From: a virus
Taxonomy: Duplodnaviria; Caudoviricetes
Direction: 5' to 3' (one strand)
Length of the DNA: 64,000 nt
IMG/VR virus record: IMGVR_UViG_3300028832_000131
Span: 10,105-74,104 of that record
How positions within the stretch are numbered: the stretch's first letter is position 1; every line of letters begins with the position of its first letter. Made by a program: the position numbers and the translations under genes. A model generated the notes under the pieces. It did no database searches. It was not told where the DNA came from and worked only from the letters and a program-made list of their open reading frames with translations. Of this stretch, positions 7,255 through 60,732 are shown in pieces.

Positions 7255-7854
7255 ATGAGGGAATATACCATATATCTTCATCGTTTGAAAAGAGATAATA
7301 GAGTATATATAGGTATAACAAAGCAAGAACTTACTAAAAGATGGCAAAATGGTTTAGGTTATATTCGTTCAAGTTATTTCTATAATGCGATTAAAAAATA
7401 TGGTTGGAAATCTTTTGAACATATCGTTTTGTTTAAAAATCTTACTAGAGAGGAAGCACAAGAAAAAGAAAAAGAACTAATAAAAATATTTAGTTCTAAT
7501 TTAAAAGAATATGGCTTTAATATTAGCGAAGGTGGCTTTGCACCAATAATAACAGAGGAGCAAAAAATAAAAATAAGCAACAGTGAAAAAGGTAAGAAAA
7601 TTAGTAGAAAAACTATTGAGAAAGCCAACGCAACAAAAAGAAAAAGATATTTAGAACATGGCTTAACTGATAAACAAAAAGAACATTATAAGAATATGAT
7701 AAAACCAATAGTATGTATTGAAACCAATAAAGTATATTATGGACACAAAGAATTAAAAAAAGATAATTTTATTCCTAATAGTGTTTATTTGGTTTGTAGA
7801 GGAATTAGAAAAACTGCTAGTGGTTATCATTGGAAGTATTATGTAAAGGAGTGA
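7255..7854 (+). CDS. GIY-YIG homing endonuclease with NUMOD-type C-terminus
   Basis: YTIYL..RVYIGIT, RW.NG, AIKKYGW..F, GFNISEGG; C-terminal SVYLVCRGIRKTASGYHWKY. Absent at the equivalent site in phage B. Confidence 0.85.
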   Translation: MREYTIYLHRLKRDNRVYIGITKQELTKRWQNGLGYIRSSYFYNAIKKYGWKSFEHIVLFKNLTREEAQEKEKELIKIFSSNLKEYGFNISEGGFAPIITEEQKIKISNSEKGKKISRKTIEKANATKRKRYLEHGLTDKQKEHYKNMIKPIVCIETNKVYYGHKELKKDNFIPNSVYLVCRGIRKTASGYHWKYYVKE

Positions 7855-8516
7855 TAATTATTATTTACGTTATTATGGCAGGTGGTCAATATCAAGACTT
7901 TGAAACACCAAAACAATTAACTGTAATTAATGGTGAGTGTTTAGTAGATAGAACAATTCGTTTGTTAAGGGAAAACGGAATAAAAGACATATACATTACT
8001 AGCAACGATAAAAGGTTTGATTATAGCGATGCCCCTAGGCTAAAACATTACAATTCATACAAAGTGGAGGACGGTATTCAATATGGATATTGGTTGGATG
8101 CCTTTTTTCCACTATTTAAGCCTACCGAGAAAGTGTGTTTCATGTTTGGAGACGTATATTATACTGAAGAGGCAATTCGCACGATAGTGGACTTAGAATG
8201 TACTAAAAACACCTTATTTGGTACAAGTGATGCTAAAAACGAGAATCACGAGAATTGGGGAGAACCATTTGCTTATAAAGTGGTCGATTATAAGGCTTTT
8301 ATGGAAGGTATAGAGGCGGTAAAGAAAATGCAAGACGATGGATTAACTAAACGTATGCCTATTGTATGGGAACTGTATCGTTATTTAAACGGCTTAGACA
8401 TTAATGTTCAACAGGTTTTGGATGAAACTTATGTATGTGTTGATGACGGAACTATGGACGTTGATACCTTAGATAAGGTAGAAATGGTTCGAAAGAGGTT
8501 CGAAGATAATGAGTGA
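7851..8516 (+). CDS. Nucleotidyltransferase-fold protein (LicC/MobA-like NTP transferase)
   Basis: YVIMAGG..PKQL..INGE.LVDRTIRLL...GI.DIYI, FGDVYY, DVDT; canonical GxGxR is replaced by GGxY. Confidence 0.72.
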   Translation: MIIIIYVIMAGGQYQDFETPKQLTVINGECLVDRTIRLLRENGIKDIYITSNDKRFDYSDAPRLKHYNSYKVEDGIQYGYWLDAFFPLFKPTEKVCFMFGDVYYTEEAIRTIVDLECTKNTLFGTSDAKNENHENWGEPFAYKVVDYKAFMEGIEAVKKMQDDGLTKRMPIVWELYRYLNGLDINVQQVLDETYVCVDDGTMDVDTLDKVEMVRKRFEDNE

Positions 8517-8925
8517 AGAAAGATTACAAGAAATAAAAGATAGTCTAACAGAAGAATTAAATAGTATTGATTATTATGGAAGTGAAACAGCAAAAGAAGG
8601 GTTAGAACTATACAATGAAGTAATTAGATTAAAAAAGCAAAATGAAACATTAAAGCAAAATAATATAAATGAAATATTAAAAAATGATTTATCAATATGT
8701 GCTAAACAATACAAAAAAAGTGAAGAAAAATTAGAAAAAGCAAACAAGAAAATAGAAAAAGCAAACAAGAAAATAGATAAAGCAATAGAATATATAGAAA
8801 ATACACCATTATATGAAACAACATACGATTATAATATGGAAGAAGAACTAGAAATACAAAATGTTAGTGATGAAACAGCAAGTAATGATTTATTAAATAT
8901 ATTAAGAGGTAATGATGAAAAATAG
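8509..8925 (+). CDS. IDKAIEY...LLNILRG family small protein
   Basis: Shares conserved blocks with 52779, 53705, 55073. Confidence 0.65.
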   Translation: MSEERLQEIKDSLTEELNSIDYYGSETAKEGLELYNEVIRLKKQNETLKQNNINEILKNDLSICAKQYKKSEEKLEKANKKIEKANKKIDKAIEYIENTPLYETTYDYNMEEELEIQNVSDETASNDLLNILRGNDEK

Positions 8926-10656: not shown

Positions 10657-11334
10657 GTGTGCGTGAAAAAGTTTTCTCAAGAAAGTATAAATAAGAGGGT
10701 AGCAGCCACCCTAGAAAACAGTGATAAAAAAGAAATGGCTAAGCAAAAAATGATTCAAGAAATCAAAGAGGAATCAAAGGGGATGCTACTCCCCAACTTA
10801 AAAGAAAAAATGGAAAAAACTACGGAGTTAATTCTTAGTTTATTAAAAGAAAAAGATATTAGTAATATACAAATCATGTCATATATTGCGAAGGGAAGTT
10901 TACTTGAAAATGCTTTGGGTAGGAGTGTAGGGTACACCCCCCAAGAATTAAGCATTGGATTCGACTTATACCTAGATATGATTAATAAGATAAATGAAAT
11001 TAAGCCCTTTCCCCCCACAGTAGAAAGTTTTGCTAACTTTATGGGGATAAGTAGGGATACTTATAACAATTATCTAGTGGATGCGGATAGGAAAGATATT
11101 ATGAGTTATATACACTCATATTTATTAGGAGTCCTAGCCACCTCCTCCCTAACAGGTGAAACAAAGGAAATATCTAGTATCTATTTACAAAAATCAATGG
11201 GCAAAGTAGAGCAAGTTCAACCGATTGTGGTAGAGCATAAAAAGATAGCCAACTTAGAAGATATTAATAAGCGACTTGCCGACCTATCAAAAGATAATAT
11301 TATTAATGCGGAATATGAAGAAAAAGAGGATTAA
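10657..11334 (+). CDS. terS: Terminase small subunit (gp3 DNA-packaging family-like)
   Basis: YTPQELSIGFDLYLD...PPTVESFANFMGISRDTYNNY matches the gp3-type TerS pattern; no other terS candidate near terL. Confidence 0.68.
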   Translation: MCVKKFSQESINKRVAATLENSDKKEMAKQKMIQEIKEESKGMLLPNLKEKMEKTTELILSLLKEKDISNIQIMSYIAKGSLLENALGRSVGYTPQELSIGFDLYLDMINKINEIKPFPPTVESFANFMGISRDTYNNYLVDADRKDIMSYIHSYLLGVLATSSLTGETKEISSIYLQKSMGKVEQVQPIVVEHKKIANLEDINKRLADLSKDNIINAEYEEKED

Positions 11335-11355
11335 ATAAATCCTCTATTTTTTTTT
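11325..11355 (+). terminator. Intrinsic terminator after terS
   Basis: AGAGGATT...AATCCTCT plus T9; conserved at ~57607-57636. Confidence 0.75.
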
Positions 11356-11396: not shown

Positions 11397-12065
11397 TTAA
11401 TACAAATCCCAATCTAAATCCTCCTGTAACTTTGCTAGAATCTCTTTATAATCTTTAGTTCCATATCTAGCATAACATAATTTTATTTTTCTCTCGAACG
11501 ATACTAATGGAACATTTAATATCGAACAAGCCGCTCTCATACCTGTATTAGTATCTACCATATATTGTAATACCTTAATAAAGTTTTCACGAGTAGACCT
11601 ATCGGAATATGCTCTACCTAGTTTCTTCCCACTTTCACGTACCGCTCTTAATCCTTCTTTAGTTCTTTCACTTATAATGTCTCGTTCAAATTGTCCTAGT
11701 ACCGAGAAAATACCTAGTAATAAACTTGTGGTAGAGTTTGGTTGTTCCCCAGCCCTTAACTCGAATCCTTCTTTAAAAATAATTACGTTAATTTTTCTTT
11801 TTTGTACTAAATCAGTTATTAATTCTAATGTTCTAATAACTCCACCACGAGAAAGACGAGATAAACTTTCTACTATTAAGGTATCACCCTCCACCATAGT
11901 AGCCATAAGTTCATCAAATACAGGACGATTGATTTTTGTTCCTGTAAACTTTTCTTCCACGTAAGTACAATTATTATTATTTATATAGCCTCTATCCTTA
12001 AATATTTGTATTTGTCTATTAAACTCTTGTGAATCTCTTGAAACTCTTATATAACAATAAATCAT
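11397..12065 (-). CDS. Small serine recombinase (resolvase/invertase)
   Basis: YIRVS catalytic motif, EEKFTG, GDTLIVESLSRLSR, ERDIISERTKEGL, C-terminal HTH; no large-integrase domains. Confidence 0.93.
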   Translation of the reverse strand: MIYCYIRVSRDSQEFNRQIQIFKDRGYINNNNCTYVEEKFTGTKINRPVFDELMATMVEGDTLIVESLSRLSRGGVIRTLELITDLVQKRKINVIIFKEGFELRAGEQPNSTTSLLLGIFSVLGQFERDIISERTKEGLRAVRESGKKLGRAYSDRSTRENFIKVLQYMVDTNTGMRAACSILNVPLVSFERKIKLCYARYGTKDYKEILAKLQEDLDWDLY

Positions 12066-12427: not shown

Positions 12428-12961
12428 TTAATATGTACGCACAGGTAAAACTAACCCTAATTCTTTATCTTCGTTTTCAAAGTATAATGGTTGTAATTCG
12501 CCTTGATAGTAGATTTTACTATCTTTACCAATAATATCTAACATATTCTTTAAAAACTTTGCTTGATATTGACTACCGCCAAGTTTATATAAAGCCATTT
12601 CACGACCTTTATGATTCTTAATAAACTCCTTTAAATCATCATAATCAATAGTTAATTCGTTATTTCTATCAAAGTTTCCATTAAAATAATTCATTATTAC
12701 ACTAGGATACTTTGCATAAATGATAGAGCCTACCCCGTGTTCATCATGATATTTTTTAATATCTATACCATATTGTTTAATTTCATCATTAGTAATAACT
12801 AATGGTAAGGGAATATTTTCTTCTTTAATCATAATAGCATGGTAGGAGTCCGTTACGCATTTATACTCCCCAAAAATCCCATATCCCGTTAATACAGGAT
12901 TCGTATGAGTCTTTTTGCTTGCTACTCGTTTAATAGCATTTAATCTAGTTTTCTTATTCAT
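12428..12961 (-). CDS. Truncated DnaN (beta sliding clamp)-like protein
   Basis: PVLTGY...VTDSYHA and C-terminal Y.AKFLKNMLD...LVLPVR echo DnaN domain II and III motifs; homologue at 60070. Confidence 0.6.
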   Translation of the reverse strand: MNKKTRLNAIKRVASKKTHTNPVLTGYGIFGEYKCVTDSYHAIMIKEENIPLPLVITNDEIKQYGIDIKKYHDEHGVGSIIYAKYPSVIMNYFNGNFDRNNELTIDYDDLKEFIKNHKGREMALYKLGGSQYQAKFLKNMLDIIGKDSKIYYQGELQPLYFENEDKELGLVLPVRTY

Positions 12962-14465: not shown

Positions 14466-15125
14466 TTAACACACATTATCCTCGTGCAAAGTTTCCACAG
14501 ATTCAAAATCCATATCTTCAAAATACATATCTAGCCACTCTTTATCTTCATCATCATGGATATTATATGGATAACAATATTCTCTAGTTAATATATATTT
14601 ACTAGATTCGTTTACCCTGTCTACCCATTTTTGAATATCGTTTTTAATACCATCTAGCCAATTTTTGTATTTTTTTGTTTCCATGATTCTTGTCATTTTA
14701 TCCGCATCAACATAATAATCATCAACAATTATGTCAAAGTCTTCTATATATCTTCTAATAGTAAAGTCAACACTATCAACCCATAGGTTTTCCCCATAGA
14801 TATTAATGCCTTCATCATTAATCTTAAATCCTTTAATGGAGTCTATCCACCCCCCCTGACTATTGCTATCTAGGTAGACCTCATCAAAGGAAATGTTTTT
14901 AAACTCGTATCTTAAATTGTCTAACTCCATTTTATACTCCTCGTATAAATCGTCTTGGTATCTCATGTAAATATCTTCTTTATGTCTATCAATTTCTTCT
15001 TCTTTTTCTTCATCAGTTAACTCGTCCCAACTCTTTATAGTATGGAGTGTTTCACGGATAGATTCTTGCTCGTGTCCGTCTTCTTCATATATTTTAGTAA
15101 TGTCTACTTGTCTATATTTTTTCAT
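14466..15125 (-). CDS. Highly acidic conserved early protein
   Basis: 219 aa, D/E-rich; homologue at 61900-62556. Confidence 0.75.
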   Translation of the reverse strand: MKKYRQVDITKIYEEDGHEQESIRETLHTIKSWDELTDEEKEEEIDRHKEDIYMRYQDDLYEEYKMELDNLRYEFKNISFDEVYLDSNSQGGWIDSIKGFKINDEGINIYGENLWVDSVDFTIRRYIEDFDIIVDDYYVDADKMTRIMETKKYKNWLDGIKNDIQKWVDRVNESSKYILTREYCYPYNIHDDEDKEWLDMYFEDMDFESVETLHEDNVC

Positions 15126-20427: not shown

Positions 20428-20456
20428 ATTGTATCATAATAATATAATATTGTCAA
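20428..20456 (-). promoter_or_regulatory. Near-consensus SigA early promoter driving the leftward island
   Basis: TTGACA-17-TACAAT with TG extended -10. Confidence 0.85.
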
Positions 20457-23513: not shown

Positions 23514-25253
23514 ATGTTAAAGGTAGGGGACAAGATAGAATTAAAACCTAAACAAAATACTCTAAAAGATACGTTTTTAGGCGTTTGTGAGGCTCTTCGA
23601 AGTGATAGATTGTCCGAGGAAGAGAAACTCGAATGGTCTGAGACCGCCTTAAATGTGCTAGAAATGTGGTATAATCAGGAAGATATGGAGTCAATAGGGG
23701 TAGCAAAGAAAAAATTGATTCCTGCCTTATATAATTTAATTAATAAAGGGAGCATAAATAATATGGCTCTCTTTTTTGATTATTATAGACGAGTATACAG
23801 CATTTGTGCGAGACGAGATTTTGAGTGTTTTGTAGATTACATAGAATGGGAGCAGCCTAGGAAGGTTTTGGCTAATAGACGAGAGGTATTAAAACCTTAT
23901 ATTGATGCTTTACAAGAATTAGCCTTTAATCCAAGACTTCATTATGTAATTGTATGCTACCCACCAAGTTTAGGAAAGAGTTATATTGCGACTTTATGGG
24001 AGGCTTGGGCTTTCGGTATGAGTATAGATAACTCGATTATTCGTATGAGTTATTCTGATGAGTTAGTATTAGGTTTCTCGAGAACGGTTAAAGGAATCTT
24101 ATGTAGTCCTGCTTTTTGTGAGATATTTACTAATTATCAAAGATATGGTGGCAAACCATTTGAAGTTGAAAGAGAGTCGGATTGGAAGATTAAAAATGCT
24201 AATGTTCCTAAATCTAACTTAATTTCGAGAACGAGAAGTGGTGCTACTACTGGTGAACGTGCGAACTTTGCTATTATCTTTGATGATATGACTAAAGGAG
24301 CAGAAGAGGCTAATAGTGATAGTGTTCACCGTGGTGTTTATGATAAATGGAACACCGAATGGTGGAATAGACGTGACGGAGAACGATGCAAGTTCTTATT
24401 TGTAGGAACACAATGGACTCCTGAAGATATACTTAACCGAATAATTGAAGATAGAAACAAGATAAGTCCTCTTAGAGAGACGGATAATCCTTATGTGATG
24501 AGAAACGAGGACACTATTGTTATAAGAGTACCTTTGTTTGATGCAGAAGGAAAAACTACGTGTTCTGAGGTTTATCCTCAGGAAATAGCCGAGCAAATAA
24601 GAGATACTACTGACCCGTTCTTGTTTAGTTGTGTTTACCAACAAGACCCTATCGCTCCTACTGGACGAGAGTTGGCTTGGGAGAACTTATCTACTTATAT
24701 TGAGCCTCCTGAGAACTTAGAACCTTACTGTATGGCGGTAATGGATACTAAAAGAAGGGGAAAAGACAACTTAAACATGTTTATTTGCAAACCTGATGGC
24801 TGTGGTAAGCATTTTTTGTGGGATTGTATATTTAGTAAGAAACCCATGGAAGAGTTATATAACGACATAATAAATAAAGTAATTGACAATAATATTACGA
24901 CTTTAGTAATAGAAAATAATATAGACGTTTCATTAAAACCTTTATTAGAAGGAAAACTTAGTGAACGTGGTTGGTATACTTGCAAAATTGTTGAATTATA
25001 CAACACCAAAAAGAAGGAAGAACGTATAAAAAACAATTTAGGTGGAATCCAAAAAAATATTATCTTTAAAGACAAGTCTATTGTTAAAGCAAATACTGAT
25101 ATTGGTAGATTAATGGATAATATAACGAAGTATTCTTTTGATTATCCTAACAAGTTTGATGACGGGCCAGATGGTGCTGCTATGTATAACTCCGAAATCG
25201 TTGTTGGGCGAAGTATTTTACAAAAACCGAAGGCTGTGCAAAGAATATTTTAA
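23514..25253 (+). CDS. terL: Terminase large subunit
   Basis: Walker A PPSLGKS, Walker B IIFDD, VGTQW, VYQQDP, nuclease MDT...KFDDGPD. Confidence 0.95.
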   Translation: MLKVGDKIELKPKQNTLKDTFLGVCEALRSDRLSEEEKLEWSETALNVLEMWYNQEDMESIGVAKKKLIPALYNLINKGSINNMALFFDYYRRVYSICARRDFECFVDYIEWEQPRKVLANRREVLKPYIDALQELAFNPRLHYVIVCYPPSLGKSYIATLWEAWAFGMSIDNSIIRMSYSDELVLGFSRTVKGILCSPAFCEIFTNYQRYGGKPFEVERESDWKIKNANVPKSNLISRTRSGATTGERANFAIIFDDMTKGAEEANSDSVHRGVYDKWNTEWWNRRDGERCKFLFVGTQWTPEDILNRIIEDRNKISPLRETDNPYVMRNEDTIVIRVPLFDAEGKTTCSEVYPQEIAEQIRDTTDPFLFSCVYQQDPIAPTGRELAWENLSTYIEPPENLEPYCMAVMDTKRRGKDNLNMFICKPDGCGKHFLWDCIFSKKPMEELYNDIINKVIDNNITTLVIENNIDVSLKPLLEGKLSERGWYTCKIVELYNTKKKEERIKNNLGGIQKNIIFKDKSIVKANTDIGRLMDNITKYSFDYPNKFDDGPDGAAMYNSEIVVGRSILQKPKAVQRIF

Positions 25254-45583: not shown

Positions 45584-46096
45584 ATGAACGGAACAACAGG
45601 AATTGGGTTAGATTGGAGTGGTCTAATTGGATTACTTATCATAGCTGGGATATTTGGATATGGTAATGGGTTTGGATTTGGAGGCAATAATGCAGTATCT
45701 ACTTTGACAAATGCTGAGCTTCAAATGGGACTATACAATCAAACTACTGACAACGCTATTCGTGGCATATCAAGTCAAGTTGCTACCTTGAATGATACTG
45801 TCTTAATGGGTAAGTATGATAACGCATTACTAATGAAAGATGCGTCACAACAACTATCTAATAGTATTGCATCTATTGGTAATTTAGTAGTACAAGAAAA
45901 TCAGGCTACTAGAGATATGATAATGCAAAATAAGATTGATTCATTATCAGACACAATTACAATTCTACGTGGAGAGAATAGTAATTTAAAACAAACCGCT
46001 GAAATCACCCAAAATATTTTAGGTAGTTTAGCTACTACTGCTCCAAAACCACCATGTTATTATGGATATGGTTGCGGTTGCAATTCTCTATACTAA
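45584..46096 (+). CDS. Cassette protein: TM/Gly-rich N-terminus, coiled-coil stalk, Cys/Tyr/Gly tail
   Basis: LIGLLIIAGIFGYGNGFGFGG; ENQATRDMIMQNKIDSL; PCYYGYGCGC. Confidence 0.75.
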   Translation: MNGTTGIGLDWSGLIGLLIIAGIFGYGNGFGFGGNNAVSTLTNAELQMGLYNQTTDNAIRGISSQVATLNDTVLMGKYDNALLMKDASQQLSNSIASIGNLVVQENQATRDMIMQNKIDSLSDTITILRGENSNLKQTAEITQNILGSLATTAPKPPCYYGYGCGCNSLY

Positions 46097-46116
46097 GGTA
46101 TAGATTGACTTATATT

Positions 46117-46145
46117 GACTAGACACTATAAGTCTAGTCTTTTTT
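46117..46145 (+). terminator. Internal cassette terminator
   Basis: GACTAGAC/GTCTAGTC plus T6. Confidence 0.8.
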
Positions 46146-46164
46146 AAAGAAAGGAGGTAATAAA

Positions 46165-46527
46165 ATGTGTAATACAATATTTTGTTCAAACGTAACAACT
46201 ACTGATACAGCAGTTGTATTAATTCCTAATCAAGAAATTAAAACTTTAGAAAACGTTGGTTGTTATAGATTAATTATATGTTGCAACGCTACTGCTACTA
46301 GCAACTTGCCTGTATTTATTCAAGTAGGGACTACTAATATTCCTGTGTTATGTCATGCAGGTAATGTAGTATACTCTTCACAATTAACTAAACGTAAAAA
46401 TTATCCAATTATATATGGAAACGAAAACCCAGAATATACTAATGGACAATTTGTAATACAAGGTAATATATGCCCAAGAGCTGCAACTATACCAGCAGTA
46501 CAAACAACAACACAAAAAGTTAAATAA
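46165..46527 (+). CDS. Cassette protein: Cys-rich beta-sandwich-like
   Basis: Seven Cys, beta-rich, 120 aa. Confidence 0.7.
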   Translation: MCNTIFCSNVTTTDTAVVLIPNQEIKTLENVGCYRLIICCNATATSNLPVFIQVGTTNIPVLCHAGNVVYSSQLTKRKNYPIIYGNENPEYTNGQFVIQGNICPRAATIPAVQTTTQKVK

Positions 46528-46544
46528 AGAATGGAGGTGAAAGT

Positions 46545-46985
46545 ATGATAAAGGAATATATAAATAAAATAGGAAATATAAAAGATTCGAATAAAATGGA
46601 TAAATTAGGAGAAATGTTAGAAAAATTAATATATAATTTAAAAGATGAACACGAAGAAGAATATGAAAAATATAAAACAGAATTATACGAATTAGCTTAT
46701 GGGAAAAAGATAAGTAGAGAAATGGCAGTAGAGTGGGTGAATAGTATGAAACCATTAGGAGAATACTGGACTATAGACCAAACTACAAATGCTATGCAAA
46801 CGTTAGGATATAATTTAGATTCAATAGATTTTTATGTAGCGGCTAATATGATAATGAACGATTATAGTGATTTATTAGAAGAGGAAGAAGAATTAGCATT
46901 AAAAATGGCTTATGATTGGTTAAATGATGAAGATGCTAAAGATAATAAATTATATTGTTATTGGAAGCATATAGTAAAAAAATAA
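46545..46985 (+). CDS. Cassette protein: acidic helical
   Basis: AVEWVNSM..GEYWT..QT, FYVAANMIMNDY, AYDWLNDEDA...KLYCYW. Confidence 0.75.
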   Translation: MIKEYINKIGNIKDSNKMDKLGEMLEKLIYNLKDEHEEEYEKYKTELYELAYGKKISREMAVEWVNSMKPLGEYWTIDQTTNAMQTLGYNLDSIDFYVAANMIMNDYSDLLEEEEELALKMAYDWLNDEDAKDNKLYCYWKHIVKK

Positions 46986-47008
46986 GAGCATTAAACTCTT
47001 ATTTTTCT
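46981..47008. terminator. Bidirectional terminator
   Basis: AAATAAGAG...CTCTTATTT flanked by A and T runs. Confidence 0.65.
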
Positions 47009-47054
47009 TTAGGATAACACCTACTACGGACTAAATATATTATACCATATAAGT

Positions 47055-47083
47055 TTGACAAAAGCGAGTATATAGTGTATATT
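47055..47083 (+). promoter_or_regulatory. SigA promoter of a stand-alone gene
   Basis: TTGACA-17-TATATT. Confidence 0.7.
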
Positions 47084-47084
47084 A

Positions 47085-47369
47085 ATGCACTTAAAAAGGG
47101 GGTGTATATTTGTGAATTGTATTGTTACATACCAAAAGTCAAACGGGGAAATATTTATAAGACCATACGACCACTCTTGTTTTGCAATGAGTAAAAGAGT
47201 AGGGGACGAAACTTCAATGGGTTGGACTATAATTGATATACATTATAAATACAAAAACAACTATTATTGTTTTGATGATTTTATAAAGTTGTTCAATAGA
47301 GAAGTTAAAGAAAAATTAAACAAAAAAATGTTAAAATTCGTAATAAGAAAATTAAACAAATTAACTTAA
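47085..47369 (+). CDS. Stand-alone (moron-like) hypothetical protein
   Basis: Own promoter; likely GTG start near 47112 after GGGGTG. Confidence 0.6.
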   Translation: MHLKRGCIFVNCIVTYQKSNGEIFIRPYDHSCFAMSKRVGDETSMGWTIIDIHYKYKNNYYCFDDFIKLFNREVKEKLNKKMLKFVIRKLNKLT

Positions 47370-47429
47370 ATATATTGACATTAATATTGTAAACCTGAAA
47401 TAAAAAATAAAGGAATTACAAAAAAAGTA

Positions 47430-47458
47430 TTGACGAAGCAACAAAAGTATTATAAAAT
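47430..47458 (+). promoter_or_regulatory. SigA promoter for the phage B replication operon
   Basis: TTGACG-17-TAAAAT. Confidence 0.65.
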
Positions 47459-47602
47459 TGACTTGTAAATAGATAGAGGGACAAGATAATTTTTACCTTT
47501 TTTTGCTATATGTAGTACTTAACATAATATATATTACAACAATTTAGCCGAAATAGGTAAAACACTTATTTCGGTTTTTTTGTATCTATAGAAAGGAGAA
47601 AC

Positions 47603-47806
47603 ATGAAAGAATACAAATACCTTAACTTATTTTATGAGATGAGGAAAAACAAAGAGTTTTTAAAGGACGTAGCAGAGTTGTTAGACGTAACACCACAAAC
47701 AATAAGTGCTAAGTTAGCGGGAGAACATGATTGGACAATAGGTGAGATCGAAACACTATGCGAACATTACAATAAAGACTATTACGAATTATTTAAAAAA
47801 GATTAA
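47603..47806 (+). CDS. XRE/Cro-like HTH regulator (B)
   Basis: Homologue of 273-482 (DWTIGEIE..C.HY.KDYYELFK). Confidence 0.8.
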   Translation: MKEYKYLNLFYEMRKNKEFLKDVAELLDVTPQTISAKLAGEHDWTIGEIETLCEHYNKDYYELFKKD

Positions 47807-47821
47807 TTATGAATTGTGGGT

Positions 47822-47887
47822 ATAAAAAAAGACCTCTAGGCGATGGCTGAGGTCACGTAAATAATACGCACAAAAAAATTACTTACA
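47822..47887 (-). ncRNA. Putative antisense RNA upstream of rep (B)
   Basis: Promoter 47894-47922, stem GACCTC/GAGGTC, U7 tract. Ends approximate. Confidence 0.62.
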
Positions 47888-47893
47888 AACTAT

Positions 47894-47922
47894 ATTATAC
47901 AACAAATGAAATTATAAGTCAA
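47894..47922 (-). promoter_or_regulatory. Antisense SigA promoter (B)
   Basis: TTGACT-17-TATAAT. Confidence 0.8.
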
Positions 47923-47939
47923 TAAAGAAGGTGAGATAG

Positions 47940-48659
47940 ATGGGTTATATACAAATTGACAGAAATATTAGTAATAATTGGATATGGCAAAAAACACCGT
48001 TTTCTTATGGACAGGCTTGGATAGATTTATTGTTATTAGCAAATTATAAAGAAAATAAAAGAATAAAAAATAACGAAATAGTTATCTCTAATAGAGGAGA
48101 AGTAAACTTATCAATATTATATTTATCTAATAAATGGGGTTGGGACAGAAAAAAAACAACAAGATTTTTAGAGCTACTAGAGAGAGATAACATGGTGGAA
48201 CTTAACAAATCTAAAAATGGGACAACGATAAGGATAACTAATTACAATATATATCAACAAAATCAAGTAGATACGAAACAAAAAATGGGACAACAAAAGG
48301 ACAACGAATGGGACAACAACTCCCCATATATAAATAAAGAAAACAAAGAAATAAATAATATATATAAAGAAAGTATATCTAAAGATATACCAAAGAAAGT
48401 AGAAACAAAATATTTTGAAAGTTTAAAAGTAAATACATTGTTTAATGAGTTTTTAGAATTACGAAAGAAGATAAAAGCAGTAAATAGTGAAAGAGCTATA
48501 AACACACTAATAAACAAACTTAAAAACTATGATGAAGATACTCAGTACAAGATGATAGAAAATTCTATAGTTAATTCTTGGAAAGACGTGTATGAGCTTA
48601 AAGAACAAAAAAGAAAGGATAATGTTTTAGATACATTAAGGGAAATCTATAATGAGTAA
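47940..48659 (+). CDS. Phage replication initiator (B)
   Basis: GYIQIDRNI..WIW, AWIDLLLLAN; different C-terminal domain from A. Confidence 0.85.
   Translation: MGYIQIDRNISNNWIWQKTPFSYGQAWIDLLLLANYKENKRIKNNEIVISNRGEVNLSILYLSNKWGWDRKKTTRFLELLERDNMVELNKSKNGTTIRITNYNIYQQNQVDTKQKMGQQKDNEWDNNSPYINKENKEINNIYKESISKDIPKKVETKYFESLKVNTLFNEFLELRKKIKAVNSERAINTLINKLKNYDEDTQYKMIENSIVNSWKDVYELKEQKRKDNVLDTLREIYNE
48218..48400 (+). repeat. Origin (B): TGGGACAAC iterons plus the conserved palindrome
   Basis: Copies at 48218, 48286, 48298, 48309; 48365-48400 identical to 991-1026. Confidence 0.72.
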
Positions 48660-49182
48660 AAAAGAAATATCAAAAATAATTTTACTATTAAAAACTTCAT
48701 ATCCATACGCATTTAAAGATATGGAAAGAGAAGATATAACGAACATGGTAGACCTCTATGAAGAATTATTTAAAGAGAATACTTATGAAGAGGTATTAAC
48801 TGCTATCAAATGTATAGTAACTACAAACGAATATATGCCAGCAATCGCTACCATAAAAGCGAAGATATATGAACTAAGCCACCCGCAGCAAGAAAGTAAT
48901 AGTGACTTATGGGATAGTTTACTAAAAGCGATTGGCAATAGTAGTTACCATTCAGAAGAAGAGTTTGAAAAATTACCGTTGTTAGTTAAAGAGTATATAA
49001 GAAGTCCAAGACAATTACAAGAAATGGCTACAATGCCTAGTGATGAAATACATACAGTAGTTAAAGGACAATTTTTAAAACAAATCGAAATTATAAAACA
49101 AAATTATAAAGAAAGTGAAATAACAGGAAGAAACTTATTACAAGAAAAAGGATATATAAAATTAGAAGAGGTGATTGATTAA
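48652..49182 (+). CDS. G39P-like helicase loader/inhibitor
   Basis: KEISKIILLLKTSYP...Y.EV..AI.....NEYMPAIATI; directly after rep. Confidence 0.7.
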   Translation: MSKKEISKIILLLKTSYPYAFKDMEREDITNMVDLYEELFKENTYEEVLTAIKCIVTTNEYMPAIATIKAKIYELSHPQQESNSDLWDSLLKAIGNSSYHSEEEFEKLPLLVKEYIRSPRQLQEMATMPSDEIHTVVKGQFLKQIEIIKQNYKESEITGRNLLQEKGYIKLEEVID

Positions 49183-49835
49183 TGGAAAACGTAAAAAGTT
49201 TAAATGAAAGTATTATGGCAATAAGAGTTAAATTACAAAACGCACAATTAAAGAAAACAGGAAAGAATAGTTTTGCTGGATTTGATTATTTTGAATTAGC
49301 AGACTTTTTACCAAAGCTAAATGAATTAATGTTAGAAGAAGGATTAAATGATCTATTTACTATTGAAACAGATATGAATGAAACAATGGTAGCTAAATTG
49401 ACTTTGATAAAAGGTGAAGAAAAACAAGAATATAGAATGCCTTTTAAACTATTCGAAACACCAACTAACTTAAAGAAAGATAAAGATACTGGTGAAATAA
49501 GAGAAGTTAAAAGTATGCAAGATATTCAGTATTTAGGAGCATTAAATACATACTATAAACGTTATCTATACCTAAACGCATTTGGAATAACAGACGGTGA
49601 CGTAATTGATGCAATAGATAATACTGATATTGAAAACAAAAAGAAAAGTAAACAAGATCTAAAAGCAAGTCCAAAACAAATTGATATTATAGCTAAAAGA
49701 TATGTAGGCGAAAACTTAATTAAATTGCTTAAAGCAAACGAAATTGAAAAGATAGAAGATTTACCTGCAACAAAAGCTAGTGAAATTGTTAAATGGATAT
49801 TTGAAGAAAACAAGAAAGATGAAGGAGATAAATAA
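49182..49835 (+). CDS. ERF-family single-strand annealing protein (B)
   Basis: GKNSFAGFDYFELADFLP, QYLGALNTYYKRYLY. Confidence 0.75.
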   Translation: MENVKSLNESIMAIRVKLQNAQLKKTGKNSFAGFDYFELADFLPKLNELMLEEGLNDLFTIETDMNETMVAKLTLIKGEEKQEYRMPFKLFETPTNLKKDKDTGEIREVKSMQDIQYLGALNTYYKRYLYLNAFGITDGDVIDAIDNTDIENKKKSKQDLKASPKQIDIIAKRYVGENLIKLLKANEIEKIEDLPATKASEIVKWIFEENKKDEGDK

Positions 49836-49837
49836 TT

Positions 49838-50149
49838 ATGGAATTAATTAAAATAGAAAACGGATTAGAGGTTGCAAGTGAAGAATTAATAAATGCAGCA
49901 TTAGAGATTAAGTTTTTAGAAGAAAAATTAAAAGCAAAAAAAGATGCTCTTACACTAAGTCTTTTAGAAGAAATGGAAAGTAAAGAAATTAAAAAAATAG
50001 ATACCCCTGACGTAGTTATATCTTACATTGGAGAAAGTGAAAGGGAAACATTCGATTCTAAGAGATTTAGAGAAGACTATCCAGATATGTATGATGAATA
50101 TACCCGATTTAGCATAGTGAAACCTTCAATAAGGATAAAAATAAAATAA
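49838..50149 (+). CDS. Conserved phage recombination-region protein
   Basis: ETFDSKRFREDYPDMY motif. Confidence 0.6.
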   Translation: MELIKIENGLEVASEELINAALEIKFLEEKLKAKKDALTLSLLEEMESKEIKKIDTPDVVISYIGESERETFDSKRFREDYPDMYDEYTRFSIVKPSIRIKIK

Positions 50150-50163
50150 TATGGTGATAGATA

Positions 50164-50778
50164 ATGGAAGAATGGAGCATAAAGGGTGGAACATTAGAAT
50201 ATGACGATGAAGCACATTGCTACATATACGAGGGAATGATATTACCAAGTATTACACAAATCTTACAAACTAAGTTTGGTAAAAAATACGAAGGTGTAGA
50301 AACTAGGATATTAAATAGAGCTGCTGAAAAGGGAACACTAATACATAAAGCAATAGAAAAATTATGTAAGACTGGTGAGATGGAAGATTACAAAGAGGTA
50401 CGTAACTTTCTATTCTTACAAAAACATTATCAGTTTAATGTTATTGATAACGAAGTACCAGTTGTATTGTTTAAAGATGATATTCCTATAGCTGCAGGTC
50501 GATTAGATCTTGTATTAGAAATAAATAACGGATTATATCTAGGTGATATTAAAAGAACCTCAGTACTTGATAAAGAATATTTAGGTTATCAATTAAATCT
50601 TTATCGTATAGCATATCAACAATGTTATGAAAAGAAAATAAAAGGTCTAAGAGGAATCCACCTAAGAGATGATAAACGAAAGTTTGTACCAATTCCAATT
50701 AAAGAAGAAATGGCATGGAATTTGGTTGAAGAATATAAGAGGTGTGAAGATGAAAATGAAAAAGGACTCTTGTTTTAA
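50164..50778 (+). CDS. PD-(D/E)XK exonuclease (B)
   Basis: LPSITQIL, KGTLIH, AGRLDL, GDIKRT, YQLNLY. Confidence 0.8.
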   Translation: MEEWSIKGGTLEYDDEAHCYIYEGMILPSITQILQTKFGKKYEGVETRILNRAAEKGTLIHKAIEKLCKTGEMEDYKEVRNFLFLQKHYQFNVIDNEVPVVLFKDDIPIAAGRLDLVLEINNGLYLGDIKRTSVLDKEYLGYQLNLYRIAYQQCYEKKIKGLRGIHLRDDKRKFVPIPIKEEMAWNLVEEYKRCEDENEKGLLF

Positions 50779-50953
50779 TAAGTATGATAACTGCGTAAAG
50801 GTATATTGCAAATGCGGACGTTCAACACACTTTTTTAGAAATCATTCTGTAGAGTGTAATCATTGCGGACGTATGGTATATCCAACAAAAGAATGTGAGT
50901 TTAAAGAGAAAATGAAAATGAAATTGAGAAAGGAATTAAGTAAACATGAATAA
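50669..50953 (+). CDS. Small Zn-ribbon protein (B)
   Basis: CKCG...CNHCG; the true start is probably internal. Confidence 0.6.
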   Translation: MINESLYQFQLKKKWHGIWLKNIRGVKMKMKKDSCFNKYDNCVKVYCKCGRSTHFFRNHSVECNHCGRMVYPTKECEFKEKMKMKLRKELSKHE

Positions 50954-51374
50954 AGTATTTTTAAGAGGAGTAGTAACTAAAGATATAGAATTAAAATCCA
51001 CACAAAATAAAACAGCAATGACAAAGTTTAGTATTGCAGTAAGAAGAGATATAAAAAACGCTAATGGAGAATATGATACAGATTTTATTAACTGTATTGC
51101 ATTTGGCAAAATAGCTGAAACAATAAGTAAGTACTTTCATAAAGGTAGTGGAATACTTGTAATGGGGCATATTCAAACAGGTTCTTATGAAAAAGAAGAT
51201 GGAGGTAGAGTATATACTACTGACATTATCGTAGAAAATATTGAGTTTGATAGAAGCAATTCAAATAAAGAAACTGAGAAAGAGAAAGAAGAACCAAAAC
51301 AAAAACTAAGTGATGAACCATTTGAGAGTTTTGGTAGACAAGTTACTATAGATGAAAGTGAATTACCATTTTAG
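50946..51374 (+). CDS. ssb: Single-stranded DNA-binding protein (B)
   Basis: Homologue of 3263-3700; ELPF tail. Confidence 0.95.
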   Translation: MNKVFLRGVVTKDIELKSTQNKTAMTKFSIAVRRDIKNANGEYDTDFINCIAFGKIAETISKYFHKGSGILVMGHIQTGSYEKEDGGRVYTTDIIVENIEFDRSNSNKETEKEKEEPKQKLSDEPFESFGRQVTIDESELPF

Positions 51375-51382
51375 GAGTATGT

Positions 51383-51685
51383 ATGGAAGAAAGAAGATAT
51401 GGTGAGGATATATCTTTTGAAACTAGAAGAGAAAGTAATGACAAAGTAGATAAGAAAAAAAGATATAACCAAATAAAAGAGATTTTGAAAGAGTGGGGAG
51501 AATTAACAGCTAAGCAAATTGCAGTAATAATGCAAAAGAAAGGTTATATACCTACGTCAGAAAGAAATTTTACAAGTCCAAGACTAACTGAATTATGTAT
51601 ATCAGGTGAAGTAGAAATTGTTGGAAAAGAAAAATGTGAGTTTACTGGAAAGACAGTTAGTGTATTTAAGTTAAGAAATAATTAA
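51383..51685 (+). CDS. Winged-helix-like protein (B)
   Basis: Close homologue of 4509-4811. Confidence 0.65.
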   Translation: MEERRYGEDISFETRRESNDKVDKKKRYNQIKEILKEWGELTAKQIAVIMQKKGYIPTSERNFTSPRLTELCISGEVEIVGKEKCEFTGKTVSVFKLRNN

Positions 51686-51698
51686 TATAGGGGAATGG

Positions 51699-51971
51699 TT
51701 GAAAGAAAGGGAAATTATGAAAATTATAATAGATATATTTGTAATCGTATCATGTATAGCAATTATTTATATAGCTATCCATTATCTAATTATTGATATA
51801 AATAACGCTAAAAGAATAGAGCAAATTGATGAAGAAAAAAATAACACACAAATACAAATATATGAAATAAATCGAAGAGTTGTAGCGTTAGAAAAGGAAA
51901 ATCAAGATGAGGAACGAGATAGTACTAGAAAAAATAAAACAAGCAATAAGCATACTGGACGAAATAGATGA
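51699..51971 (+). CDS. Single-TM coiled-coil protein
   Basis: N-terminal TM. Confidence 0.55.
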   Translation: MKEREIMKIIIDIFVIVSCIAIIYIAIHYLIIDINNAKRIEQIDEEKNNTQIQIYEINRRVVALEKENQDEERDSTRKNKTSNKHTGRNR

Positions 51972-52347
51972 GATGATTGACACACAATCTATTGAAATAC
52001 AAAACACAGATCTACAACTAAGTGACTTATATCATTTGATAGAAAATAACGAATTAAGTGATTCAGCTAGTATAAACGTTGTTAAGAAAATACATTATTT
52101 AAGGCAATTAAGACGTAGTTTAAATAATGAACACGAAATAGAAAACACTTATAATATACACAAATCAAAATTATCAGGTAAAGATACAAGACAGTTTTTA
52201 TTACATGAAGTATATAAAACAGTTAAAAGTCTTGGCTCTAAATATAAAAACAGGATATTAACTGAGGAGGATATTCAAGAAATAATAGAACCTAAAAAGA
52301 AAAGAGGAAGACCTCCTAAGGAGAAAATAAATGAGAGAGAAAATTGA
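51907..52347 (+). CDS. Helical protein with AT-hook (KKRGRPP)
   Basis: 146 aa. Confidence 0.6.
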   Translation: MRNEIVLEKIKQAISILDEIDEMIDTQSIEIQNTDLQLSDLYHLIENNELSDSASINVVKKIHYLRQLRRSLNNEHEIENTYNIHKSKLSGKDTRQFLLHEVYKTVKSLGSKYKNRILTEEDIQEIIEPKKKRGRPPKEKINEREN

Positions 52348-52571
52348 AACCTATAAATTATTAATTACAGAAGAGTTAATACGAGTAGATTTAGAAAATA
52401 AGAAAGAAAACAAACAAGAATATCTAAAAATGACTAGAGTAGATTACTTAAAAAGATTGTTAAAATTGTTAAAGATGGTGGAAGAATGATTGAGTTTATA
52501 TTAGGATTTTTATTTACAATATTTTTAATAGCAGTAATAGTATTTTGTTTAATAGTAGGAGGTGATAAATA

Positions 52572-52766
52572 ATGAAAGCATTATTATTAAAAGCAAGTGA
52601 TTATGATTATCAAGAAAAAATTGAAGTAAATACAATAGAAGATTTATTAAAAATAGATAAGTCTTTAATTATCGAAAGTGATGAAGAAACATTAGATATT
52701 TTTAAAAACAGCGATAGTGATGATTTTGAAATGGTTATAACAATTTATGATGATTATATAGAGTAG
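52572..52766 (+). CDS. Acidic 64-aa protein
   Basis: GGAGGT RBS. Confidence 0.6.
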   Translation: MKALLLKASDYDYQEKIEVNTIEDLLKIDKSLIIESDEETLDIFKNSDSDDFEMVITIYDDYIE

Positions 52767-52778
52767 GTGATAAGTTAA

Positions 52779-53201
52779 ATGAATAATGAAATAAAAGAAA
52801 TATTAGATTATTTAAAAGAGTTTATTGATGAAGATAGATTAGAACAAATTAATCTTAATAGATGGTTTATTAGTTCATTATTAGATTACATAACTAATTT
52901 ACAAGAACAATTACATCAAGCGAGTTTAGATATTCAAGAATTAACTGAAAGAGATATTGAATGTCCTAGTTGGTGTGATAAATTAACTAAATTACAACAA
53001 GAAAATCAAGATTTAAGTAGAATGTGTGAATTATATGGTAAATCTTTGTATAATGCAGAATTAACAGATTATAAATCAAGAATAGATAAAGCAATAGAAT
53101 ATGTTAAAGAGTGTTATACACAACCACCTAACATAGAAAACTTTATGCACGAAGGAGAAATGAATTATTTATTAAATATATTAAGAGGTGAAGATAAATG
53201 A
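52779..53201 (+). CDS. IDKAIEY...LLNILRGEDK family protein
   Basis: Conserved flanks, unique core. Confidence 0.65.
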   Translation: MNNEIKEILDYLKEFIDEDRLEQINLNRWFISSLLDYITNLQEQLHQASLDIQELTERDIECPSWCDKLTKLQQENQDLSRMCELYGKSLYNAELTDYKSRIDKAIEYVKECYTQPPNIENFMHEGEMNYLLNILRGEDK

Positions 53202-53410
53202 CAAAAGAAGAATTTAAAAAGAAATGGGAAAGTGATGATGATGGTGGTGGAATAACAAATGAAGATATAGCAAGTTGTTATATTGAATGGGGATTAGGAA
53301 GAGCACCATATTCACAAACAATAGATTATGTTATTTGGAGAGTATGTGAAAGTGCTAATACAAATGACAAAAAGTATTGGGAGAAAAGAGCATTAAGGAG
53401 CGATGAATAA
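53198..53410 (+). CDS. Hypothetical protein
   Basis: 70 aa, ATGA overlap. Confidence 0.6.
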   Translation: MTKEEFKKKWESDDDGGGITNEDIASCYIEWGLGRAPYSQTIDYVIWRVCESANTNDKKYWEKRALRSDE

Positions 53411-53680
53411 ATGTTAAAGATTAAAGATTTACAAAGATTAATTGTAGAAATACAGCATTATGAAATGGAATTGTTTGAGGCATTAGATGAAGATTATCCT
53501 GATAATAGAATTGTAAGAGCAAAAGAAAGAGCAATATATAATCGATTAGATAAAATCACGAATGATATTGTATTAAAAGAAAAAATAAGGTTATGTATTC
53601 AACAAGGAATGTGGAATACAAAAGATTATACATTTAAGCCAATATTTGATAATTTAAGAAATATTGGACTTGAAGTTTAG
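53411..53680 (+). CDS. Hypothetical protein
   Basis: 89 aa. Confidence 0.6.
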   Translation: MLKIKDLQRLIVEIQHYEMELFEALDEDYPDNRIVRAKERAIYNRLDKITNDIVLKEKIRLCIQQGMWNTKDYTFKPIFDNLRNIGLEV

Positions 53681-53704
53681 TAGAAAAGGTAGAGTGATAA
53701 AGAA

Positions 53705-53938
53705 ATGCATATGACAGTAAATATTGATAGATATATTGAAGACATGGAACAATGGAAAAAGACAAGAGAAGAGAATGATAAATTGAAGCAAGAACTCCAA
53801 AGAAAAGATAATATAATAGAAAAAGCAATAGAATACGTAGAACATAATACTTTTCAAAATAGTGGTGGTGATTGGATATTTACATTTTATGAAGGAAAAG
53901 AATTATTATTAGATATTTTAAGAGGTGAAGATAAATGA
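53705..53938 (+). CDS. IEKAIEY...LLDILRGEDK family protein
   Basis: Conserved flanks, unique core. Confidence 0.65.
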   Translation: MHMTVNIDRYIEDMEQWKKTREENDKLKQELQRKDNIIEKAIEYVEHNTFQNSGGDWIFTFYEGKELLLDILRGEDK

Positions 53939-54225
53939 AAGAGATGATGAGAGAATTGTTTTTAGAAAACTGGGTAAAAGAAGCAAGTTTAGAAGAAATA
54001 GTTCAAAAATTAATAGAAAATGATGAAAGACACAAAGAAATAGAAAGACTTAATAATATAGTTAATGAATTAGAAAAATGGTTAAAAGAAGAAAAAGAAA
54101 ATTATAATTTAGAATTAACAAAGAAAAACGAAAAAGCATTAAGTTATAGTTTACCAATAAAAAATGTTTATAGACAAGTTTTAGATAAAATAAAGGAATT
54201 AGAAGATAGTGGGAGTGATGAATAA
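53935..54225 (+). CDS. Hypothetical coiled-coil protein
   Basis: 96 aa. Confidence 0.6.
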   Translation: MKEMMRELFLENWVKEASLEEIVQKLIENDERHKEIERLNNIVNELEKWLKEEKENYNLELTKKNEKALSYSLPIKNVYRQVLDKIKELEDSGSDE

Positions 54226-54229
54226 ATAA

Positions 54230-54421
54230 ATGCCTAAAAAAATAGATTATGAATGTTGTATATGCCACCAAAAATTAGAAAACAACGAGACTATTAGATT
54301 GGTAAAGCAGTTATACGGAATTTCATACTCTGGTGGTCATTATGCAGTAAGAAAATATGATTTTTGTAAACAATGTTATAGCAAGTTTGCGGGTTGGATA
54401 AAGAAACATAAGGAGGGATAA
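54230..54421 (+). CDS. Small CxxC...CxxC protein (B)
   Basis: Homologue of 5092-5280. Confidence 0.7.
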   Translation: MPKKIDYECCICHQKLENNETIRLVKQLYGISYSGGHYAVRKYDFCKQCYSKFAGWIKKHKEG

Positions 54422-55080
54422 TTATTATTTACGTAATAATGGCAGGTGGTGAATATAAAGATTTTAAAACGCCAAAGCAATTAACTATAATTAACGGGGA
54501 AAGATTGGTTGATAGAACAATAAGATTATTAAAAAAAAATGGAATTAACGAAATATATATTACAAGTACAGATCCTAGATTTGATAATTGTGTTGCCCCT
54601 AGACTAGAACACAAGAACACATATAAAGTTAGGGAAGGTATTCAAGAAGGATATTGGTTAGATGCCTTTTATCCCTTCTTTAAACCCTCTGATACCGTTT
54701 GTTATATGTTTGGAGACGTATATTACACAGAAGAGGCAATTCGCACGATAGTGGGTTTGAAATGTGTTAAAAACACACTGTTTGGAACAAGTGATGCAAA
54801 AAACGAGGAGCATGAGAATTGGGGAGAACCATTTGCTTACAAAGTGGTAGATTATGCAGAGTTTATGCGTGGAGTTGAAGCGGTTAAAGAAATGCAAGAT
54901 GCAGGATTAACTAAACGTATGCCTATTGTATGGGAATTATACAGATTTTTAAACGGATTAGACATTAATGTTCAGAGGGTATTGGACGAAACTTATGTAT
55001 GTATTGATGACGGCACCATGGACGTTGATACCTTAGATAAGGTTGAAATGGTAAGAAAGAGGTTTGAAGATAATGAGTGA
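54421..55080 (+). CDS. Nucleotidyltransferase-fold protein (B)
   Basis: Homologue of 7851-8516; conserved IIYVI precedes the first ATG (54439), so the start may be ATT. Confidence 0.72.
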   Translation: MIIYVIMAGGEYKDFKTPKQLTIINGERLVDRTIRLLKKNGINEIYITSTDPRFDNCVAPRLEHKNTYKVREGIQEGYWLDAFYPFFKPSDTVCYMFGDVYYTEEAIRTIVGLKCVKNTLFGTSDAKNEEHENWGEPFAYKVVDYAEFMRGVEAVKEMQDAGLTKRMPIVWELYRFLNGLDINVQRVLDETYVCIDDGTMDVDTLDKVEMVRKRFEDNE

Positions 55081-56278: not shown

Positions 56279-56294
56279 TCTTATAGGAGCATAT

Positions 56295-56627: not shown

Positions 56628-56628
56628 T

Positions 56629-56942: not shown

Positions 56943-56945
56943 GAT

Positions 56946-60069: not shown

Positions 60070-60732
60070 TTAAAACTTGCGTACTGGCAGTACTATCCCT
60101 ATTTCTTCATTTTTATTAACAAAGTATAATGGCATATTAATACCTTGAAAATATATTTTACAATCTTCGCCAATAACGTCTATAACGTTCTTAACAAATA
60201 TAGGATTGTAAGCTTGTTCCCCAATTTGATAGAAAGCGTCATTTCTAGCTATTTCCTTCTTGTTAGTTTTAATAAATGCTATCAGATCATTAACGTCCAG
60301 TGTTAACTCATTACTTTTATCATAATCTAATGTAATACAATTCATTAAGTTAGGATATGTAGCATTGATTATAGCCGTTTCCCCATATTTTTCTTTATAT
60401 TCGTTTTTATCTATCCCCAATTTTTCTAAATCAGAGTCGGTAGCCACAAGGGGTAGGGGCATTTCATCTTGCTTAATCATAATAGCGTGGTAGCTATCTG
60501 TTACGCATTTATAATCACCGCATATACCATATCCCGTAAGAGCTAGTCTATCCTCCATTTTACTAGCAATTTTCTTAATAGCATTTACTCTTGTTTTATT
60601 TGTTGTTTTATAAGCAGCATTTTTTCTTATTTCTTTTTCTAATTTATCCCTTAGCTCAACAAACTTTATGTAATTAATATCATTGTCTCTTGTTATTCCT
60701 TTTATCTCATTATAGATTGTTTCTATTGTCAT
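60070..60732 (-). CDS. Truncated DnaN-like protein (B)
   Basis: RLALTGY...VTDSYHA; YNPIFVKNVIDVI...IVLPVRKF. Confidence 0.6.
   Translation of the reverse strand: MTIETIYNEIKGITRDNDINYIKFVELRDKLEKEIRKNAAYKTTNKTRVNAIKKIASKMEDRLALTGYGICGDYKCVTDSYHAIMIKQDEMPLPLVATDSDLEKLGIDKNEYKEKYGETAIINATYPNLMNCITLDYDKSNELTLDVNDLIAFIKTNKKEIARNDAFYQIGEQAYNPIFVKNVIDVIGEDCKIYFQGINMPLYFVNKNEEIGIVLPVRKF

Follow-up and report, generated by a model that had tools for sequence, protein, structure and literature searches.

Half-size phage proteins homologous to domains II–III of the bacterial beta clamp DnaN, with conserved client-pocket positions and a family-specific basic helix

The clamp-like genes and their genomic setting

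The window analysed here is a 64,000-base stretch of a Caudoviricetes virus record (IMG/VR IMGVR_UViG_3300028832_000131, positions 10,105 to 74,104 of that record). It carries two short beta-clamp-like genes, A and B, each belonging to one of two related gut phages; the genes lie on the minus strand at exactly the coordinates, and with exactly the lengths (177 and 220 aa), given for them in the initial annotation of this DNA. Both are preceded by a Shine-Dalgarno-like sequence 5′ of the ATG. A and B display 51 % identity across the whole of A (E value 4e-62), and the N-terminus of B is longer than that of A by 43 residues; the nucleotide alignment between the two genes ends at 60600. The motifs from which a clamp relationship had originally been read, PVLTGY...VTDSYHA and AKFLKNMLD...LVLPVR, are both present in A, with the same blocks in B, and their placement was also right, the first corresponding to the start of domain II of DnaN and the second to the C-terminus of domain III. 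The features referred to below are as follows.

12428-12961, minus strand: ORF A (copy A), 177 aa, short beta-clamp-like protein without the N-terminal hairpin of the family
12911..12961, minus strand: basic helix of A (KKTRLNAIKRVASKK), residues 1-17, equivalent to that of B; helix at residues 3-14 in the AF2 model
12836..12901, minus strand: NPVLTG...VTDSYHA block, A residues 21-42; the R152 equivalent is N in A
12437..12565, minus strand: Q..F.KN.LD...LPVR, A residues 133-175, C-terminal block matching that of B; P173 invariant
60070-60732, minus strand: ORF B (copy B), 220 aa, full-length family member
60604..60732, minus strand: N-terminal helical hairpin, B residues 1-43 (helices 3-13 and 21-43), from predicted secondary structure
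60553..60603, minus strand: basic helix (KTRVNAIKK.ASK), B residues 44-60, corresponding to helix alpha1 of DnaN domain II
60484..60549, minus strand: R.ALTG...VTDSYHA block, B residues 62-83, pocket subsite I by alignment
60337..60357, minus strand: YPNLMNC, B residues 126-132, aligned to the P242/R246/V247 pocket linker segment of E. coli DnaN
60079..60207, minus strand: N..F.KN.ID...LPVR, B residues 176-218, C-terminal half of domain III
20428..20456, minus strand: promoter-like site (TTGACA-17-TACAAT with TG, 11/12) heading the minus-strand block that contains A

The complete 74,104-base record comprises two collinear but diverged siphovirus units (66–84 % nucleotide identity), whose clamp genes are 47.6 kb apart. 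In window coordinates, genes of unit A occupy about 1–21,000 and those of unit B about 46,000–64,000, and the record amounts to about 1.6 copies of a ~47 kb phage genome; related complete contigs measure 46–49 kb. Despite a CheckV verdict of ‘100 % complete’, the record represents either two related phages joined in tandem or as a co-integrate, or an assembly chimera.

Each unit encodes a structural module (terminase, portal, major head protein, tape measure, tail and endolysin) and a replication/recombination module (DnaD-like loader, helicase-loader-like protein, Erf, exonuclease and SSB). Any ORFs large enough to encode a polymerase are confined to the structural module, and neither a phage polymerase nor a clamp-loader gene was found, suggesting that the phage depends on the host replisome. 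In the window, the clamp-like gene is positioned outside the replication module, in a minus-strand block whose products are for the most part small, acidic and unmatched by any family; this block ends adjoining a small serine recombinase. The probable location of the gene in an ‘early island’, as originally described, rests on the strong promoter-like site at the head of the block, which is a consensus match only, of a type that is not enriched over shuffled sequences in this region.

Comparison of 15 related loci revealed that the clamp-like gene is the sole family common to all of them, with its neighbours being shuffled from locus to locus. A fixed neighbouring partner gene was rejected on account of this variation, and the constancy of the clamp gene amid changing neighbours suggests that it functions independently of any fixed phage partner. 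More distant relatives carry the gene in an early DNA-metabolism block, 2.5–3 kb upstream of a helicase. A search for the clamp-binding motif (CBM) in 130 phage ORFs returned two matches only, in the recombinase and the tape measure; as both are internal and not conserved, these proteins were rejected as partners.

Several other genes of the window were recorded. The small serine recombinase (11397–12065 and 57681–58355, both minus strand) matches the phrog_125 DNA invertase (E value 8e-37) and has its own strong promoter-like site (12117–12089); scanning of the ORFs revealed neither a tyrosine nor a large serine integrase. A bidirectional terminator-like hairpin (11325–11345) lies between the recombinase and a terS-like gene (10657–11334, plus strand; weak match to phrog_606, E value 1e-4). 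The terS-like gene is parted from terL (23514–25253, plus strand) by the whole ~9 kb minus-strand block, a layout that is repeated in unit B (terS-like gene at 56946–57620). A very acidic protein of ~219 aa (pI 4.3) is encoded at 14466–15125 and 61900–62556 (both minus strand) and also in the related locus L029, and has no Pfam or PHROG match. Between its clamp-like gene and a 77-aa gene, unit B carries two extra minus-strand genes (58709–59404, 231 aa; 59416–60027, 203 aa) that are absent from unit A, recur in the related loci L030 and L034 and have no family match. Finally, unit A encodes a homing-endonuclease-like protein (7255–7854, plus strand; phrog_314, E value 1.9e-26) upstream of a block conserved between the units (7846–8646, equivalent to 54410–55210); no counterpart of similar size is present at the equivalent place in unit B.

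Relatives and homology to domains II and III of DnaN

A word-indexed search returned 149 relatives of the two proteins, nearly all of 204–220 aa and metagenomic, often on contigs of 45–49 kb, and a further 1.84 billion cluster representatives, searched exhaustively with HMMER, yielded 49 clusters. As the relatives are mostly 204–220 aa long, A (177 aa) is an N-terminally shortened outlier. Fused or longer forms (390–2000 aa) were looked for and none was found, which is weak evidence, and in 50,697 deposited phage genomes tblastn gave no match to B or to two distant members.

A and B are true homologues of domains II–III of the bacterial beta clamp DnaN. Using hhalign, a 57-sequence family alignment was compared with DnaN from E. 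coli K-12 (b3701) and 17 Clostridia genomes, yielding a probability of 95.7 % and an E value of 8.7e-9, with B residues 57–218 placed on residues 147–365 of E. coli DnaN. When searched against PDB sequences, the family profile matches B. subtilis DnaN up to its exact C-terminus (E value 0.016), and in six Clostridia genomes it matches the C-termini of true DnaN proteins (E values 2e-7 to 7e-6). The PHROG model phrog_6615 (214 positions, named ‘DNA polymerase’) is matched by 22/33 close relatives (best E value 5.5e-11), by distant relatives (E values 1.8e-6 to 2.6e-16) and by A (E value 1.9e-5), in the latter case over the last 50 residues only (128–177); B returned no match to this model at an E value of 0.01. 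A second model, phrog_947 (‘DNA polymerase processivity factor’), is matched by 14/33 family members.

Single-sequence searches were less informative. Neither A nor B returned a clamp match in Pfam, where chance matches only were obtained (EF-hand, dynein attachment factor), or any match in NCBIfam; phmmer of the single sequences against the PDB likewise gave chance matches only, and the PADLOC defence families yielded only chance-level matches (E value >0.004). The DnaN model TIGR00663 is matched by distant members only, at 20–24 bits against a cut-off of 137.65, and A and B lie outside the full DnaN class, which comprises three-domain protomers of ~366 aa that pass the curated models.

The AF2 models of A (pLDDT 92.9, pTM 0.87) and B (pLDDT 91.1, pTM 0.84) display the DNA-clamp fold of beta-alpha-beta-beta-beta repeats. 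Comparison with DnaN by AF2 and Foldseek, which had been put forward as a check on the original proposal, thus returned a clamp-like fold, with DnaN at the top of both the Foldseek and the VIA-align results. For B, the top Foldseek matches in the PDB are all DnaN (E value 1e-4, probability 1.00), and VIA-align against DnaN gives a Z score of about 11. For A, an unbiased VIA-align search of 48,161 PDB chains placed DnaN at all of ranks 1–16 (Z 8.7–11.1), with an rmsd of 3.2–4.2 Å over 147–160 of the 177 residues and always over chain residues ~132–366. The whole A model also superposes on the protomers of PCNA, 9-1-1 and T4 gp45 (Z 6.9–8.2, 139–148 residues) and matches the herpesvirus factors UL44, PF-8, BMRF1 and UL42 with Z scores of 4.4–6.4, while unrelated folds reach Z ≤4.4. 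As the superposition is limited to residues ~132–366 of DnaN and is followed by two-domain clamps, the protein represents a slimmed version of domains II–III, consisting of about 10 strands and 4–5 helices, with about 6/16 strands missing. The proposal that these are half-size, clamp-derived proteins starting at domain II is hence borne out by hhalign, the profile searches, Foldseek and VIA-align.

The A/B family shares with DnaN (B. subtilis PDB 4TR6; TIGR00663; PF00712/PF02767/PF02768) the motifs R.xLTG...TD.Y/H at the start of domain II, (F/Y)P.Y in the II–III linker and N..Y...D...LPVR at the C-terminus, together with the fold of domains II–III (Z about 11) and the positions of the CBM pocket. 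However, DnaN is about 366–380 aa long, compared with 177–220 aa for A/B, and possesses a domain I and an alignable interface, neither of which is present in A/B, whereas the basic alpha1 helix and, except in A, the extra N-terminal hairpin are peculiar to the phage proteins.

Short phage clamps have already been annotated, and A/B is a new, divergent representative of this known but uncharacterised kind. In BFVD, the top Foldseek matches are uncharacterised Siphoviridae proteins of 163–211 aa (E values 1.9e-9 to 7e-7). The wider set of top matches consists of phage proteins of 163–251 aa, several of which are named Pol III beta (full range: E values 1.9e-9 to 8e-3, TM about 0.35–0.66), and includes entries from Bacillus phage vB_BcM_Sam46 (217 aa), Xanthomonas phage Suba (222 aa), Escherichia phage Seurat (246 aa) and Pantoea phage LIET2 (195 aa). 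Similarly, gp20 of Burkholderia phage AH2, a protein of 209 aa, is annotated as ‘DNA polymerase III beta subunit’ (PMC3483164). The short Pol III beta-like proteins represented by phrog_6615 have their size class and truncated clamp fold in common with A/B, and in both cases function is named from homology only; in the literature, our search for truncated, half-size or decoy clamps of phages turned up annotations but no study of their function. Relative to the phrog_6615 proteins, the A/B family is a distant branch, and whereas AH2 and some other phages with short clamps encode their own polymerase, none was found in the A/B phages.

Client pocket, ring interface and family-specific additions

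DnaN forms a head-to-tail dimer ring through an interface between domain I and domain III (I78, F106, I272, L273, R103, E298 and E304). In A and B, domain I is absent, and about 75–85 residues of domains II–III have been deleted. What remains of domain II is helix alpha1, strands beta2–4 and the last strand, and what remains of domain III is helix alpha1, one strand and the C-terminal beta-alpha-beta-beta-beta half. The deletions comprise some three strands of domain III and most of the second half of domain II, the latter being replaced by a short helical insert that is itself missing in many family members. No family column aligns with I272, L273, E298 or E304 of the interface; with domain I gone and these domain III residues unaligned, no DnaN-type dimer interface can be recognised. 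Judged from sequence, the inability of these proteins to form a normal ring, as initially suggested, is plausible.

A true sliding clamp could in principle be built from more protomers, forming a closed PCNA- or gp45-like ring, e.g. a trimer, that acts as a processivity factor. The superposition of the whole protein on PCNA, 9-1-1 and T4 gp45 protomers, the similar size of gp45 (target length 230) and the annotation of short relatives elsewhere as Pol III beta or processivity factor are in keeping with such an arrangement. However, the loss of about 75–85 residues from the two-domain unit (leaving about 10/16 strands), the lack of aligned columns for the interface residues, the substitution of the first strand of domain II by the hairpin and the failure to find a phage clamp loader or polymerase make this improbable.

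In contrast to the interface, the segments that form the client pocket are kept. In E. coli DnaN, the pocket comprises subsite I (R152, L155, T172, G174, H175, R176, L177, P242, R246, V247, V360 and M362) and subsite II (H175, N320, Y323, V344, M362, P363, M364 and R365) (PMC11139829). All 18 of these CBM pocket residues have aligned columns in the family, most of which are strongly conserved and DnaN-like (examples: R 49/57, L 54/57, T 55/57, Y 55/57, P 56/57, P 56/57 and K/R 52/57). In B, residues 62–83 align to R152, L155, T172, G174, H175, R176 and L177; the column of P127, in the linker segment, is P in 56/57 family members; and residues 176–218 contain the equivalents of N320, Y323, V344, V360, M362, P363, M364 and R365. 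Pocket columns have a higher information content than the others (2.92 vs 2.05 bits, Mann–Whitney p 3e-4), and the family and DnaN consensus sequences are identical at 11/18 pocket positions vs 28/142 other aligned positions (Fisher p 4.5e-4), though both enrichment statistics are biased upward because the pocket positions anchor the alignment and are the best conserved of DnaN. Certain positions are altered: the R176 position mostly carries H or Q, S takes the place of G174 and the position of V344 varies, and in copy A, R152 is changed to N and N320 to Q. At the level of the alignment, the pocket-forming segments are therefore kept, with all 18 residues aligned in columns more conserved than the rest, and the CBM pocket between domains II and III, including subsites I and II, appears to be retained, in agreement with the initial annotation.

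The pocket residues are partly core-forming in DnaN, which bears on an alternative in which the clamp scaffold, in its re-used form, now serves an unrelated purpose, e.g. as a DNA-binding regulator or a partner of another phage protein, with the pocket residues kept only for the sake of the fold. Several pocket positions are semi-buried, the most conserved residues of DnaN overlap its core, and a number of non-pocket residues (K46, R48, K53, D79, K181, N182, D185, N206 and E210) are also among the most conserved in the family, as would be expected under such re-use. We nevertheless regard it as very unlikely, given that exposed client-contact residues are kept as well (R152 equivalent in 49/57, N320 as N/D in 50/57 and R365 as K/R in 52/57).

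Two features distinguish the family from DnaN. Helix alpha1 of DnaN domain II forms part of the lining of the DNA channel; the equivalent helix of the phage family reads KTRVNAIKRVASK and carries a mean net charge of +4.2, compared with +0.2 for DnaN. This helix is still basic in members of only about 25 % identity, and K46, R48, K53 and K54 rank within the 30 most conserved positions. Its composition suggests binding to DNA or to an acidic partner, something that a pure soluble decoy would not need. The second feature is the N-terminal hairpin (B residues 1–43), which is without a DnaN counterpart and takes the place of the first strand of domain II in B. The hairpin is present in 32/33 aligned members and is missing only in A. 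A 144-aa ORF upstream of A was considered as the source of the missing hairpin and rejected, as this ORF has its own homologue in the related locus L029, where it does not adjoin the clamp gene.

The basic helix also lends support to a possible loader-independent DNA tether reminiscent of UL42 and UL44, in which the helix would rest on unencircled DNA and the pocket would hold a host polymerase on the phage genome, used for instance in Erf/exonuclease recombination-dependent replication that bypasses the host clamp and its loader. UL42, UL44, BMRF1 and PF-8 bind DNA without a closed ring or a loader, and these herpesvirus factors display a two-domain clamp fold that does not close into a ring, as may be the case here. 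Their structural match to A (Z 4.4–6.4) is much weaker than that of DnaN, there is no sequence relation, and they bind their own viral polymerase rather than a bacterial CBM client. Besides this fold match, the conserved, family-specific charge of alpha1 (+4.2 vs +0.2; K46, R48, K53 and K54), the retained pocket, the failure to find a phage polymerase or clamp loader and the location of the gene near the helicase in the early DNA-metabolism block of distant relatives all lend support to a tether. On the other hand, alpha1 is the single clearly basic helix, the family is near neutral overall (median pI 6.5; B pI 5.4), and the gene of the window lies outside the replication module, and on balance we consider a tether unlikely. 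Slightly more doubtful is the specific form in which the proteins would be ring-less, bacterial-virus counterparts of UL42/UL44 that recruit a host replicative or repair polymerase through the CBM pocket, free of any loader; were it true, a polymerase-less, temperate-type siphovirus would have private access to the host replisome.

Proposed function of the clamp-like proteins

Bacterial replication and repair have their hub in the beta clamp, whose client pocket serves as a target for antibiotics. The explanation that we favour, with a probability of about 0.5, is that A and B are ring-less pocket modules that bind host clamp clients via the pocket, outside the normal ring. The protein would act apart from the usual head-to-tail beta dimer, and its retained pocket would bind host CBM proteins such as PolC/DnaE, clamp-loader delta, MutL/MutS, translesion polymerases or YabA-like regulators, such that the phage protein may compete with the host clamp for these clients or divert them. 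The conserved basic helix probably allows client binding on or near DNA, and the N-terminal hairpin probably either shields the surface that the deletions uncover or mediates self-association. Several points weigh against this explanation. By titrating Pol III or the clamp loader, a phage reliant on the host replisome would do itself damage; no phage ORF has a convincing CBM; some pocket positions are altered; and the pocket residues are in any case among the best conserved, and in part core-forming, of DnaN.

The decoy, poison and toxin-sponge roles raised in the initial annotation are hypotheses. In the poison alternative, the protein would act on the clamp or clamp loader by binding host DnaN monomers at a ring interface or by trapping delta, either of which would block the loading of clamps and replication of the host. 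Delta is bound about 50-fold more tightly by a monomeric beta variant than by the dimer (PMC11139829), and it docks in subsite I, which is retained here. However, the elements of domain III that form the dimer interface can no longer be recognised, and the phage is apparently itself dependent on the host replisome; hence, there is only a slim chance that poisoning is the function of these proteins. A phage protein aimed at the beta clamp is known in Gp168 of Staphylococcus phage Twort (PDB 7EVP), and A/B is presumably aimed at the clamp network likewise. Gp168, however, is an unrelated small clamp-binding protein, whereas A and B are themselves clamp derivatives; in PDB 7EVP, it is the beta-clamp chain that the model matches.

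If the favoured explanation of a ring-less, client-binding pocket module holds, a widespread phage family that keeps only the client pocket would be naturally suited to the interception of clamp clients. Identification of bound clients would then indicate which host process is diverted (replication, mismatch repair, translesion synthesis or initiation control) and would provide a minimal, monomeric pocket scaffold for binding studies. For the window itself, the outcome is mainly one of annotation, with two previously unannotated genes placed in the short phage clamp class, the new details being the family-specific basic helix and the N-terminal hairpin.

With regard to possible hosts, short family members were detected in only 2/399 sampled Clostridia genomes. 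The sole matches in genome collections came from one phage contig of 40,887 bases, recovered from goat ileum in both a Methanobrevibacter MAG and a Clostridia MAG (contigs JAFRFD010000049.1 and JAFRFO010000097.1); this double binning is an artefact, and neither MAG therefore identifies the host. Finally, one Clostridia genome (G018:C70:9943-11543) encodes two adjacent frames of 377 and 371 aa, each with a match to DnaN domain III, which may represent a tandem duplication of dnaN.
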